A DNA stretch of 64,000 nucleotides from assembly GCF_013122565.1 (NCBI RefSeq), contig NZ_CP053258.1; one strand, 5' to 3'. Shown piece by piece: positions 54,631 through 59,220 of this stretch (position 1 is the first letter of the stretch; each line of letters starts with the position of its first letter). The translations under genes were made by a program, and so were the position numbers. Origin of the DNA: Escherichia coli. GTDB lineage: Bacteria > Pseudomonadota > Gammaproteobacteria > Enterobacterales > Enterobacteriaceae. Under the pieces are notes generated by a model that worked only from the letters and a program-made list of their open reading frames with translations, had not been told where the DNA came from and searched no databases.

Positions 54631-57600
54631 ATGAAATTTATGAACAGGACCAGTCCCTATTATTGTCGTCGCTCAGTACTTTCCTTATTGATATCTGCCT
54701 TGATATATGCCCCGCCCGGGATGGCTGCCTTCACTCCTGATGTTATTGGTGTGGTAAACGATGAGACTGTAGATGGCAGCCAACGAGTAGATGAACGAGG
54801 TACAACAAATAACACTCATATTATCAACCATGGCCAGCAGAATGTTTATGGCGGGGTATCTAATGGAAGTCTTATTGAATCTGGTGGATATCAAGATGTA
54901 GGAAGGCATAACAATTATGTGGGGCAGTCTAATAATACAACCATTAACGGGGGCAGACAGACAATTCATGACGGGGGTATTTCCACAGGTACGATAATCG
55001 AGAGTGGCAATCAGGACGTTTATACAGGTGGTATCAGCAATAGAACGACAATTAAGGGTGGTAATTCACACATAAGTGGGGGGACTGCGAATGGCACAAT
55101 CATTGATGGTGGCAGCCAACGAGTAACAACTCAGGGGCATGTCGACAGTACAACGATAAATAAGTCTGGCTCTCAGGACATCACGCAAGGAAGTCTGGCA
55201 ACGAACACCATCATAAATGGTGGTCGACAGTATGTTGAACAGAGCACAGTAGAAACAACCACCATTAAAAATGGCGGTGAGCAAAGAGTATATGAGAGCC
55301 GTGCGCTGGACACGACGATTGAAGGCGGAACTCAGTCTCTGAATAGTAAGTCAACGGCAAAAAATACGCAGATCTATTCTGGTGGCACGCAAATTGTTGA
55401 TAACACCAGCACCTCGGATGTTATTGAAGTTTATTCCGGTGGCGTGCTTGATGTTAGTGGTGGTACGGCAACAAATGTTACCCAGCACGATGGTGCAATT
55501 TTAAAAACTAACACTAACGGTACGACGGTGAGCGGTACGAATAGTGAAGGTGCATTCTCCATCCACAATCACGTGGCAGACAATGTGTTGCTGGAAAACG
55601 GTGGTCATTTAGACATAAACGCATATGGTTCGGCAAACAAGACGATTATTAAAGATAAAGGAACAATGTCAGTTTTAACCAATGCTAAAGCTGATGCGAC
55701 CCGAATAGATAATGGCGGGGTTATGGATGTTGCAGGAAACGCGACAAATACCATAATTAATGGTGGCACACAGAATATTAATAATTATGGCATAGCCACA
55801 GGCACCAATATCAACAGCGGAACGCAAAATATCAAAAGCGGCGGGAAAGCTGACACAACAATTATATCCTCCGGGAGCCGGCAGGTTGTTGAGAAAGATG
55901 GTACGGCAATTGGCAGCAATATTAGCGCCGGAGGCTCGCTGATTGTCTATACCGGCGGTATTGCACATGGGGTTAACCAGGAGACGGGCAGTGCTTTAGT
56001 TGCCAACACGGGTGCAGGGACTGATATCGAAGGATACAACAAGCTCTCTCACTTCACTATTACCGGAGGGGAGGCTAATTATGTTGTGCTGGAAAATACC
56101 GGCGAACTGACGGTAGTGGCTAAAACCTCGGCGAAAAATACTACCATTGATGCTGGCGGTAAGCTGATTGTCCAGAAGGAGGCTAAAACAGATAGCACCA
56201 GACTTAATAATGGCGGCGTTCTGGAGGTTCAGGATGGTGGTGAGGCTAAGCATGTTGAGCAACAATCCGGCGGCGCATTAATTGCTTCCACGACTTCCGG
56301 AACACTTATCGAAGGAATCAACAGTTATGGTGATGCTTTCTACATCAGGAATTCAGAAGCTAAAAATGTAGTGCTGGAAAACGCTGGCTCATTAACAGTC
56401 GTCACTGGTTCCCGGGCAGTTGATACGATTATTAATGCCAACGGCAAAATGGATGTTTATGGAAAAGATGTTGGCACTGTACTCAATAGTGCTGGCACCC
56501 AAACAATATATGCCAGTGCCACTTCTGATAAAGCAAATATCAAAGGTGGCAAGCAAACGGTATATGGTTTAGCCACTGAAGCAAATATCGAAAGTGGTGA
56601 ACAAATTGTTGATGGTGGGTCAACAGACAAAACGCACATCAATGGCGGTACGCAAACCGTTCAGAATTATGGTAAGGCAATCAATACCGATATCGTCTCT
56701 GGCCTACAACAAATTATGGCAAACGGGACAGCGGAAGGTTCCATTATTAATGGCGGTTCACAGGTAGTTAATGAGGGCGGTCTGGCTGAAAATTCGGTGC
56801 TTAATGACGGCGGCATACTCGATGTGCGGGAGAAAGGCAGCGCAACGGGGATACAGCAGAGTAGCCAGGGCGCTTTGGTTGCAACCACCAGGGCGACGCG
56901 GGTCAAAGGAACACGCGCGGATGGCGTCGCGTTCAGCATCGAGCAGGGTGCGGCGAACAATATCCTGCTGGCAAATGGCGGCGTGTTAACCGTGGAGTCA
57001 GACACCTCTTCTGACAAAACACAGGTCAAGACGGGCGGACGGGAGATCGTCAAAACAAAAGCCACTGCGACAGGCACGACGCTCACCGGCGGTGAACAAA
57101 TTGTCGAGGGTGTGGCGAATGAGACAACAATTAACGACGGCGGAATACAAACAGTTTCAGCTAACGGAGAGGCAATAAAAACAAAGATCAATGAAGGCGG
57201 TACGCTGACAGTCAACGATAATGGCAAAGCGACAGATATCGTCCAGAACAGCGGTGCCGCTCTCCAGACGAGCACGGCTAACGGTATTGAAATCAGCGGT
57301 ACTCACCAGTACGGCACTTTTTCCATTGTCGGCAATTTAGCGACCAATATGTTGCTGGAAAATGGCGGTAATTTATTGGTATTAGCAGGTACCGAAGCTC
57401 GCGACTCCACGGTTGGCAAGGGTGGGGCAATGCAAAACCTGGGTCAGGACTCCGCTACAAAGGTTAACTCTGGCGGGCAATATACCCTTGGGCGGTCAAA
57501 AGATGAGTTTCAGCCTCTGGCCCGGGCAGAAGATCTCCAGGTCGCTGGCGGTACGGCAATCGTCTACGCAGGTACGCTGGCGGATGCATCGGTCAGTGGC

Positions 57601-59220
57601 GCGACAGGAAGCCTGTCGTTAATGACGCCACGGGATAATGTTACGCCAGTTAAACTCGAAGGGGCGGTCCGGATTACCGATAGCGCGACATTAACTCTGG
57701 GAAATGGCGTCGATACAACGCTTGCCGACCTGACGGCTGCCAGCCGGGGCAGTGTCTGGCTTAACAGCAATAATTCCTGTGCAGGTACCAGCAACTGCGA
57801 ATATAGAGTAAACAGTTTGCTACTCAACGACGGTGATGTTTATTTATCAGCACAAACAGCTGCGCCTGCCACAACTAACGGTATCTACAATACGCTGACA
57901 ACCAATGAACTTTCCGGTAGCGGTAATTTCTACCTGCATACCAACGTTGCTGGCTCCCGCGGTGATCAACTGGTCGTCAGCAACAACGCCACTGGTAATT
58001 TTAAAATCTTTGTTCAGGATACCGGCGTCAGCCCTCAGTCTGACGATGCGATGACGCTGGTGAAAACAGGGGGAGGGGATGCGTCGTTTACGCTGGGCAA
58101 TACCGGCGGTTTCGTTGATCTTGGGACCTATGAGTATGTCCTGAAAAGCGACGGCAACAGCAACTGGAACCTGACCAATGATGTCAAACCCAACCCGGAC
58201 CCCAACCCAAATCCAAAGCCAGACCCAAAACCCGATCCAACGCCAGACCCAAATCCAAAACCAGACCCGACTCCCGAGCCAACGCCGACACCCGTTCCGG
58301 AGAAACGCATTACGCCTTCTACGGCAGCCGTACTCAATATGGCAGCAACATTACCGTTGGTATTTGATGCTGAGCTAAACAGTATTCGCGAGCGGTTGAA
58401 CATAATGAAAGCGAGTCCACACAACAATAATGTCTGGGGGGCGACGTATAACACCCGTAATAATGTCACCACCGATGCGGGGGCTGGGTTTGAGCAGACG
58501 CTGACCGGAATGACAGTGGGGATCGACAGTCGTAATGATATTCCTGAAGGGATTGCCACGCTGGGCGCTTTTATGGGCTATTCACATTCACATATCGGTT
58601 TTGATCGCGGAGGACATGGCAGTGTGGGCAGTTATTCTCTGGGCGGCTATGCCAGTTGGGAACATGAAAGTGGTTTTTATCTGGACGGTGTCGTGAAGCT
58701 GAACCGTTTTGAAAGTAACGTAGCCGGTAAAATGAGCAGCGGTGGAGCCGCCAACGGCAGTTATCGCAGCAACGGGCTGGGCGGTCACATTGAAACCGGG
58801 ATGCGATTTACCGATGGTAACTGGAACCTGACGCCGTATGCATCGTTAACGGGGTTCACCGCTGATAACCCCGAATATCATTTATCCAATGGCATGGAAT
58901 CGAAATCAGTCGATACTCGCAGTATATATCGCGAACTGGGCGCAACGCTGAGTTACAACATGCGTCTGGGGAACGGTATGGAAATTGAGCCGTGGCTGAA
59001 GGCGGCTGTACGCAAAGAATTTGTCGATGATAACCGGGTGAAGGTGAATAATGACGGTAATTTCGTCAATGATTTGTCGGGCAGACGTGGAATATACCAG
59101 GCAGGTATTAAAGCCTCATTCAGCAGTACGTTAAGCGGGCATCTCGGGGTGGGGTATAGCCATGGTGCCGGTGTGGAATCACCGTGGAACGCGGTAGCTG
59201 GTGTGAACTGGTCGTTCTGA
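54631..59220 (+). CDS. ypjA: large AIDA-I-type autotransporter adhesin
   Basis: About 1529 aa from ATG 54631 (MKFMNRTSPYYCRRSVLSLLISALIYAPPGMAA signal peptide). Long passenger with degenerate roughly 19-20-residue Gly/Thr/Asn repeats, Pro-rich linker (PNPDPNPNPKPDPKPDPTPDPNPKPDPTPEPTPTPVP), C-terminal beta-barrel ending NWSF. The ORF-track start 54511 is upstream of the signal peptide. Confidence 0.85.
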   Translation: MKFMNRTSPYYCRRSVLSLLISALIYAPPGMAAFTPDVIGVVNDETVDGSQRVDERGTTNNTHIINHGQQNVYGGVSNGSLIESGGYQDVGRHNNYVGQSNNTTINGGRQTIHDGGISTGTIIESGNQDVYTGGISNRTTIKGGNSHISGGTANGTIIDGGSQRVTTQGHVDSTTINKSGSQDITQGSLATNTIINGGRQYVEQSTVETTTIKNGGEQRVYESRALDTTIEGGTQSLNSKSTAKNTQIYSGGTQIVDNTSTSDVIEVYSGGVLDVSGGTATNVTQHDGAILKTNTNGTTVSGTNSEGAFSIHNHVADNVLLENGGHLDINAYGSANKTIIKDKGTMSVLTNAKADATRIDNGGVMDVAGNATNTIINGGTQNINNYGIATGTNINSGTQNIKSGGKADTTIISSGSRQVVEKDGTAIGSNISAGGSLIVYTGGIAHGVNQETGSALVANTGAGTDIEGYNKLSHFTITGGEANYVVLENTGELTVVAKTSAKNTTIDAGGKLIVQKEAKTDSTRLNNGGVLEVQDGGEAKHVEQQSGGALIASTTSGTLIEGINSYGDAFYIRNSEAKNVVLENAGSLTVVTGSRAVDTIINANGKMDVYGKDVGTVLNSAGTQTIYASATSDKANIKGGKQTVYGLATEANIESGEQIVDGGSTDKTHINGGTQTVQNYGKAINTDIVSGLQQIMANGTAEGSIINGGSQVVNEGGLAENSVLNDGGILDVREKGSATGIQQSSQGALVATTRATRVKGTRADGVAFSIEQGAANNILLANGGVLTVESDTSSDKTQVKTGGREIVKTKATATGTTLTGGEQIVEGVANETTINDGGIQTVSANGEAIKTKINEGGTLTVNDNGKATDIVQNSGAALQTSTANGIEISGTHQYGTFSIVGNLATNMLLENGGNLLVLAGTEARDSTVGKGGAMQNLGQDSATKVNSGGQYTLGRSKDEFQPLARAEDLQVAGGTAIVYAGTLADASVSGATGSLSLMTPRDNVTPVKLEGAVRITDSATLTLGNGVDTTLADLTAASRGSVWLNSNNSCAGTSNCEYRVNSLLLNDGDVYLSAQTAAPATTNGIYNTLTTNELSGSGNFYLHTNVAGSRGDQLVVSNNATGNFKIFVQDTGVSPQSDDAMTLVKTGGGDASFTLGNTGGFVDLGTYEYVLKSDGNSNWNLTNDVKPNPDPNPNPKPDPKPDPTPDPNPKPDPTPEPTPTPVPEKRITPSTAAVLNMAATLPLVFDAELNSIRERLNIMKASPHNNNVWGATYNTRNNVTTDAGAGFEQTLTGMTVGIDSRNDIPEGIATLGAFMGYSHSHIGFDRGGHGSVGSYSLGGYASWEHESGFYLDGVVKLNRFESNVAGKMSSGGAANGSYRSNGLGGHIETGMRFTDGNWNLTPYASLTGFTADNPEYHLSNGMESKSVDTRSIYRELGATLSYNMRLGNGMEIEPWLKAAVRKEFVDDNRVKVNNDGNFVNDLSGRRGIYQAGIKASFSSTLSGHLGVGYSHGAGVESPWNAVAGVNWSF

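Follow-up and report, generated by a model that had tools for sequence, protein, structure and literature searches.

The window analysed here is a 64,000-nt stretch of Escherichia coli DNA (contig NZ_CP053258.1). On its plus strand it carries an intact copy of ypjA (ehaD in O157:H7), which encodes an adhesin of the AIDA-I/Ag43/TibA group, a classical type Va autotransporter; we put the probability of this identification at about 95%. The gene is already known and annotated, and nothing in the data contradicts its identification. Between the predicted β-helical passenger and the outer-membrane barrel lies a spacer of alternating X-Pro dipeptides. Its length differs among strains, and this variation is a slow, in-frame allelic polymorphism that follows lineage, not phase variation.

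The whole coding region of ypjA is contained in a single open frame (54511-59220, plus strand). RefSeq begins the gene of K-12 and other strains at the ATG that stands here at 54640 (MNRTSPYY...), 8 nt after a Shine-Dalgarno sequence, AGAGGA, at 54626-54631. A preliminary description of this DNA had begun the gene at 54631 (MKFMNRT...), which is in frame, but 54640 is the likely start codon; its statement that the gene is intact agrees with the open frame of 1526 codons. For nucleotide comparison 5,426 complete E. coli genomes from RefSeq were searched by megablast. The gene was 97.6% identical in DNA to ypjA of K-12 MG1655 at 100% coverage and 98.5% identical to the top-ranking genome, that of isolate AB66. 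Counterparts in E. coli bear the RefSeq label "adhesin-like autotransporter YpjA/EhaD". The gene order is also that of E. coli, with tRNA-Ile ileY, ypjCB and a recombinase (pin) remnant upstream and ssrA, smpB, ratA, yfjF, bamE and recN downstream. Since annotation, identity and neighbours all agree, the window gene is the known ypjA (ehaD), an orthologue of K-12 b2647 by near-full-length identity and synteny. Its parts are as follows.

54640-59220, plus strand: ypjA/ehaD coding sequence, 1526 codons and stop, no internal stop
54640-54726, plus strand: Sec signal peptide, 29 aa, MNRTSPYYCRRSVLSLLISALIYAPPGMA | AFTPD
54727-57807, plus strand: passenger, about 35 degenerate coils of 18-19 aa, predicted β-helix
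57808-58176, plus strand: pertactin-type C-terminal passenger domain (autochaperone region), PF03212 E 1.8e-45, 1DAB E 1.3e-15
58186-58299, plus strand: X-Pro spacer, 19 strictly alternating dipeptides (aa 1183-1220), imperfect 6/12/42-nt repeats
58315-58407, plus strand: α-helical linker, AlphaFold2 helix at fragment residues 227-257 with a predicted local distance difference test score (pLDDT) of 76-91
58426-59217, plus strand: 12-strand outer-membrane β-barrel (translocator), PF03797, 12 strands in the model

The first 29 residues run from basic residues through a hydrophobic core to G-M-A|A, which by sequence is an N-terminal signal, and a YpjA signal peptide of 29 aa is listed in PMC13101318. 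In the AlphaFold2 model this region forms a helix at residues 12-23, and pLDDT is low across residues 1-29. Periodicity of the passenger was tested by BLOSUM62 autocorrelation of residues 30-1060 against 200 shuffles. The strongest peak was at lag 18 (z 10.2), followed by lag 19 (z 7.3), and harmonics appeared at 35-37 and 54; the barrel had no comparable periodicity (z 1.7 at lag 18, maximum z 3.1 at lag 55). An iterated repeat hidden Markov model (HMM) gave 35 units with scores above 0; they lie in aa 46-982 and have the consensus I-I-N-G-G-x-Q-x-V-x-x-G-G-x-A-x-x-T. The dozens of repeats announced in the preliminary description are thus present, with a period of 18-19 rather than 19-20 residues; the motif given there was recovered too, except that its spacing has one more residue between V and G. 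Pfam model PF16168 (AIDA) matched 11 stretches of the passenger (E 1.3e-145), and TIGR04415, a strand-loop-strand repeat listed as O_hepto_targRPT, matched 10 (E 2.9e-68). The repeat blocks are parted by a junction module of about 90 aa that occurs in five copies, at aa 306, 472, 567, 765 and 894, with the pattern ...G-G-x-L-x-V...F-S-I...N-x-L-L-E-N-G-G.... The AIDA repeats of about 19 aa with a predicted β-helix, together with the pertactin-like autochaperone domain, place the protein in the AIDA-I-type group.

Structure models gave the same order of domains. The model of residues 1000-1526, built from a 39-sequence alignment (mean pLDDT 82.8, predicted template modelling score (pTM) 0.76), runs from β-helical coils through a low-confidence stretch and a 31-residue α-helix to 12 strands. 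An α-helix before the barrel is a feature of type Va autotransporters, and in homologues it sits in the barrel pore. The C-terminus, ...VNWSF, ends on an aromatic residue as in type Va barrels. Profile matches of the barrel were strong (PF03797 E 7.4e-46, TIGR01414 E 2.5e-99), and Foldseek placed it closest to the BrkA β-domain (E 1.5e-21, target TM 0.91), with EspP, Hbp, AIDA-I and NalP also matched. Both checks proposed for the C-terminal β-barrel, the autotransporter HMM and structure prediction, therefore found it. The model of residues 1-1192 (mean pLDDT 77.8) is all-β with short strands throughout, and its confidence falls at the junction modules. Its best folds in the PDB were Ag43 (6e-21), TibA (6e-12) and pertactin. 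A sequence search of the PDB returned Ag43 variants (E 2e-32 to 4e-27), TibA, Vag8, the BrkA β-domain, pertactin and IgA1 protease. An autotransporter with a long β-helix passenger, as first described, thus fits the predicted folds, and all expected domains are present.

The spacer was said to be encoded by imperfect short DNA repeats. This was borne out by Tandem Repeats Finder, which reported periods of 6, 12, 18 and 42 at 58205-58286 (period 42 score 129) with units of 64-87% matches; the span is now refined to 58186-58299. In a separate DNA repeat search one family (D1) spanned 58186-58293. In the model pLDDT falls below 50 at fragment residues 184-221, which would be extended or disordered and coincide exactly with the X-Pro run. 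Length was surveyed by comparing a 501-bp segment (58000-58500) with the complete E. coli genomes; even steps down the ranking gave a sample of 60 records. The segment lengths were distributed as follows.

501 bp: 31 of 60 records
495 bp: 18 of 60 records
507 bp: 8 of 60 records
477 bp: 1 of 60 records
579 bp: 1 of 60 records (a paralogue, not ypjA)
partial segment: 1 of 60 records

The 58 full-length ypjA rows thus fall into four spacer classes of 15, 18, 19 and 20 dipeptides (477, 495, 501 and 507 bp). The 579-bp segment, with its (Asn-Pro)n expansion, was considered as a ypjA allele and rejected, as it is located between ymgJ and minE. When representatives of the classes were aligned, every indel lay within 58213-58252 and was a multiple of 6 nt. 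Since the repeats come in units of 6 nt and the indels seen are whole multiples of that length, none of them breaks the frame. All sampled K-12 derivatives had the 501-bp segment and all sampled O157:H7 strains had the 507-bp segment. Since length follows lineage in this way, we regard the spacer as a slowly changing polymorphism and not as a phase-variable tract.

A short imperfect tandem repeat whose length is not the same in all strains, and which in the paralogue of strain XJ5.2 has grown into a nearly pure CCNAAC tract of 32 dipeptides, could in principle be a hypermutable contingency locus, at which slipped-strand mispairing switches the adhesin or rapidly tunes it within a population. 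This is very improbable for ypjA. Shifts of frame or promoter spacing and variation within clones, by which a contingency locus would be recognized, were absent from the sampled strains; the units are imperfect, the 6-nt steps always keep the frame, the 58 full-length rows hold just four classes, and length has been stable in the K-12 and O157:H7 lineages over decades of separate culture. A different idea, which we consider quite unlikely, is that the spacer acts as an evolvable length ruler and that the paralogue between ymgJ and minE could also swap spacer or passenger blocks with ypjA by gene conversion. Such exchange between the two loci is conceivable because their leaders and 3' ends are about 95-97% identical. 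If the ruler were real, the reach of the β-helix beyond the barrel would depend on the number of dipeptides (15-20 in ypjA and 32 in the paralogue), and selection would match this reach to the O-antigen or capsule thickness of each lineage. The data behind both ideas are just the lineage-correlated length classes and a mosaic pattern. We therefore return to slow allelic polymorphism as the account of the spacer.

Length variation of the adhesin between strains had been thought possible from the repetitive DNA, and comparison of ypjA lengths had been proposed as a check. The expectation holds for the spacer; the repeats of the passenger have diverged. Long near-identical DNA repeats that might drive recombination in the passenger were looked for and rejected, the families found being 60-76% identical across 21-54 nt; five full-length alleles, when aligned, differed in passenger length by one 2-aa indel. 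With repeats at most 76% identical and length nearly fixed, the passenger is not a hot spot of slippage or recombination. Its distal tip varies in sequence.

54900-55300, plus strand: hypervariable distal passenger tip, low identity between alleles, raised ratio of nonsynonymous to synonymous substitution (dN/dS)

Compared with K-12, the window is 87% identical at 54940-55239 and 100% identical over the 600-nt stretch 55540-56139. For the tip at 54900-55300 the best match was 80-90% identical in 1563 of 2984 genomes, and the closest complete-genome match was 98.3%. This mosaic tip suggests recombination between alleles. Values of dN/dS were calculated by the Nei-Gojobori method for the window gene against four alleles.

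Whole gene: dN/dS 0.15-0.31
Autochaperone domain: dN/dS 0.03-0.07
Helix and barrel: dN/dS 0.00-0.14
N-terminal tip, aa 30-330: dN/dS 0.35-0.64

A conserved secretion unit with a diversifying exposed end is the usual pattern of a surface adhesin, and on this pattern we argue that ypjA is functional where it is kept.

Beyond spacer length, ypjA varies mainly by the loss of the gene or of a large piece of it. Of the 5,426 complete genomes, 2,435 (about 45%) carried at least 80% of its length, about 2,525 the spacer region and 2,984 the N-terminal region. In one recurrent variant about 1.3 kb (about 57425-58736) is missing, and with it the end of the passenger, all of the spacer and the first part of the barrel; the annotation marks this variant as frameshifted, and other frameshifted copies also occur. 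This variant, seen as matches of 72% coverage, was considered as an in-register loss of repeat blocks, a reading rejected in favour of the 1.3-kb deletion with an alignment overlap of about 10 bp at the junction. Matches of 9% coverage, first read as deleted ypjA, proved to be remnants of the paralogue between ymgJ and minE.

A stub of this paralogue survives beside minE, which is why genomes that lack ypjA still give matches to the query over its first 100 nt and its last 345 nt. In most E. coli the paralogue consists of such a 5' and 3' stub, with the leader and the last 345 nt (96.5% DNA identity to ypjA; e.g. locus L009, 1501-1943). The K-12 stub location is one that we take to be pseudogene ycgI. 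Strain XJ5.2 has an intact paralogue of 1132 aa between ymgJ and minE (locus L013, 1112-4510), which the NCBI Prokaryotic Genome Annotation Pipeline (PGAP) also labels ypjA. The leader shared by the two loci lies directly upstream of the coding region.

54413-54639, plus strand: conserved leader of ypjA, including a 39-codon open reading frame (ORF) at 54456-54575 and AGAGGA at 54626-54631

This leader of about 220 nt is about 95% identical to that of the paralogue and is more strongly conserved than the N-terminal coding region. A structured RNA was rejected as its content (fold z -0.2, no Rfam match). PGAP calls a 39-aa hypothetical protein at 54456-54575, but a small coding ORF was not supported, since all five differences between the paralogues in it are nonsynonymous and it has no family match in Pfam or NCBIfam. 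A consensus scan of the plus strand upstream of ypjA gave no sigma-70-like promoter. The upstream DNA at 51000-54000 has a GC content of 28-42%, an AT-richness that would fit xenogeneic silencing; a literature search for ypjA together with H-NS found nothing relevant. The sole regulatory hint that we found in the literature is a peak of RpoS-holoenzyme binding upstream of ypjA in a table of genomic systematic evolution of ligands by exponential enrichment (SELEX; PMC5493296).

On its downstream side ypjA is adjacent to ssrA, as first described, with a gap of 160 nt from the ypjA stop.

59381-59743, minus strand: ssrA (transfer-messenger RNA), found by ARAGORN, Rfam RF00023 295.8 bits, 3' end facing ypjA

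A contiguous ypjA-ssrA junction was present in 1,384 of the 5,426 genomes; in the rest, the match ends near 59380, where ssrA has its 3' end. In K-12 genes of the CP4-57 prophage (ypjF, yfjZ and others) directly follow ypjA. This is consistent with the ssrA 3' end (59221-59381) being an island-integration site that would be empty in the window; ypjA adjoins ssrA here because no island is inserted there.

On the upstream side, ypjCB (52370-53704, DUF5507 and DUF5508, 444 aa) is intact in the window, and its K-12 equivalent is a pseudogene with an internal stop. Between ypjCB and ypjA a 122-aa ORF (53959-54327, minus strand) lies in a local GC-rich patch (51% GC) and has no family match in Pfam or NCBIfam; RefSeq genomes have a recombinase (pin-like) remnant annotated near this position on the opposite strand. 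Farther away, the window holds a tRNA cluster at 16799-17524 with Ser(gct) and four Arg(acg), overlapped by an antisense tRNA-Arg(tcg) call of ARAGORN at 16915-16986 that is probably spurious.

Adhesion and biofilm phenotypes of YpjA on forced expression are reported in PMC9289746, and in PMC3796261 citing Roux et al. 2005. The protein groups with the self-associating autotransporters, a β-helix is predicted along its passenger, and the same review calls its mechanism unknown and its structure unpublished (PMC9289746). EhaD is associated with biofilm formation in E. coli that produce Shiga toxin (STEC; PMC4076661), and ypjA is enriched in human-associated STEC (PMC12547504). In the mechanism that we propose, the 29-aa signal peptide would take the protein through Sec and the C-terminal 12-strand barrel would insert in the outer membrane with the preceding α-helix in its pore. 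By analogy with related autotransporters, the passenger would thread out C-terminus first and the pertactin-like autochaperone would fold first. This domain may then template the stacking of the roughly 35 coils, each of 18-19 residues, into a long right-handed β-helix jointed by the five modules of about 90 aa. The 19 X-Pro dipeptides would form an extended, non-globular spacer from barrel and helix to the folded rod. The exposed rod would promote adhesion and biofilm formation, with the distal tip as its fast-evolving part. Spacer length would shift as 6-nt units, each coding for one X-Pro, are gained or lost, for which slippage during replication or unequal exchange within the imperfect repeats would be the simplest route; these in-frame, lineage-stable changes would alter the length of the spacer and would not switch ypjA on or off.

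Three points weigh against this picture of a working surface adhesin. The gene is dispensable, being absent or deleted in about 55% of the complete genomes and frameshifted in some. The passenger model, with a pTM of 0.39 and low-confidence joints, does not fix the shape of the rod as a whole. For the spacer, an extended conformation is suggested by low pLDDT and composition. One might go further and see in ypjA a cryptic relic that is turning into a pseudogene, has no current function and is intact here by accident. The limited distribution, the recurrent 1.3-kb deletion that takes out the spacer together with the first part of the barrel, the frameshifted copies and the reduction of the paralogue to a remnant in most strains all speak for decay; the DNA at and upstream of the 5' end is rich in AT (28-47% GC), as is typical of silenced DNA, and the source cited for the published phenotypes, Roux et al. 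2005, speaks in its title of a strategy that combines inactivation and expression. Even so, a relic is unlikely: the 1526-codon frame is open, dN/dS (0.15-0.31 over the whole gene, 0.00-0.14 in the autochaperone and barrel) indicates that retained copies are still under purifying selection, RpoS holoenzyme binds upstream in the genomic SELEX table (PMC5493296), and the gene is enriched in human-associated STEC (PMC12547504). The TIGR04415 (O_hepto_targRPT) matches in 10 stretches and the presence of the hyperglycosylated TibA among the closest solved folds might be taken to mean that YpjA is a glycosylated adhesin of the AIDA-I/TibA type, its repeats heptosylated by a dedicated glycosyltransferase. 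We give this very little credence. An aah/tibC-type heptosyltransferase gene was sought next to ypjA and none was found in its neighbourhood in the window, where ypjCB and the recombinase remnant lie upstream, ssrA lies downstream and no family matches the ORF at 53959-54327; by this measure YpjA falls outside the glycoprotein subgroup. We retain the reading of ypjA as a known, classical autotransporter adhesin gene.

The finding changes little, since ypjA/ehaD is annotated and has already been studied in published work. It adds modestly to what is known: variability is quantified (presence in about 45% of genomes at no less than 80% of length, a recurrent 1.3-kb inactivating deletion, a conserved secretion unit capped by a hypervariable tip), there is direct evidence of an in-frame polymorphism of 15-20 X-Pro units, and a nearly extinct paralogue with a much expanded spacer has come to light. 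These features are of use in typing and to those who employ YpjA as a surface-display scaffold.

The closest known system is YpjA of K-12 (b2647), called EhaD in O157:H7, which shares with the window protein the locus and its neighbours, the length of 1526 aa and the domain order; protein identity to K-12 is 96.7%. The window allele is nevertheless distinct from the known YpjA/EhaD alleles, with no complete RefSeq E. coli genome above 98.5% DNA identity. Its spacer differs from that of K-12 by 3 substitutions and falls one dipeptide short of that of EDL933; its tip segment is mosaic relative to K-12, and it has no CP4-57-like island between ypjA and ssrA. In the paralogue between ymgJ and minE, aa 119-1132 of the XJ5.2 protein are 79.7% identical to YpjA aa 578-1526, but this protein has 1132 aa, lacks passenger blocks and has a spacer of 32 dipeptides that is mostly Asn-Pro.

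The alternating X-Pro run also recalls TonB, in which the Glu-Pro/Lys-Pro segment is an extended spacer, and a TonB model matched weakly at aa 1185-1229 (E 0.0014). The resemblance is one of composition, the TonB segment lies in the periplasm whereas that of YpjA would be at the cell surface, and YpjA has no energy-transduction role. Pertactin (P.69) of Bordetella shares a homologous C-terminal passenger domain (PF03212; 1DAB E 1.3e-15). The numbers of GGXXP and PQP repeats in pertactin (PRN) have been used to genotype B. bronchiseptica isolates (PMC12243275). Such typing by repeat number parallels the X-Pro length classes of YpjA, although the repeated motifs are PQP and GGXXP in the one and X-Pro dipeptides in the other. 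We know of no link of YpjA to immunity.

With Ag43, TibA and AIDA-I the window protein shares AIDA-type coils of 18-19 aa, a β-helix passenger, a pertactin-like autochaperone and a 12-strand barrel, all predicted in YpjA. In the protein search TibA-like and other autotransporter homologues were about 32-37% identical to full-length YpjA, and the scores stayed far below the NCBIfam equivalog cut-offs for Ag43 (NF033177, 344 versus 1200 bits) and AIDA-I (NF033176, 259 versus 1200). YpjA differs from this group in a passenger about twice as long with five junction modules, and judged by the equivalog scores it is a separate family within the AIDA-I-type group.

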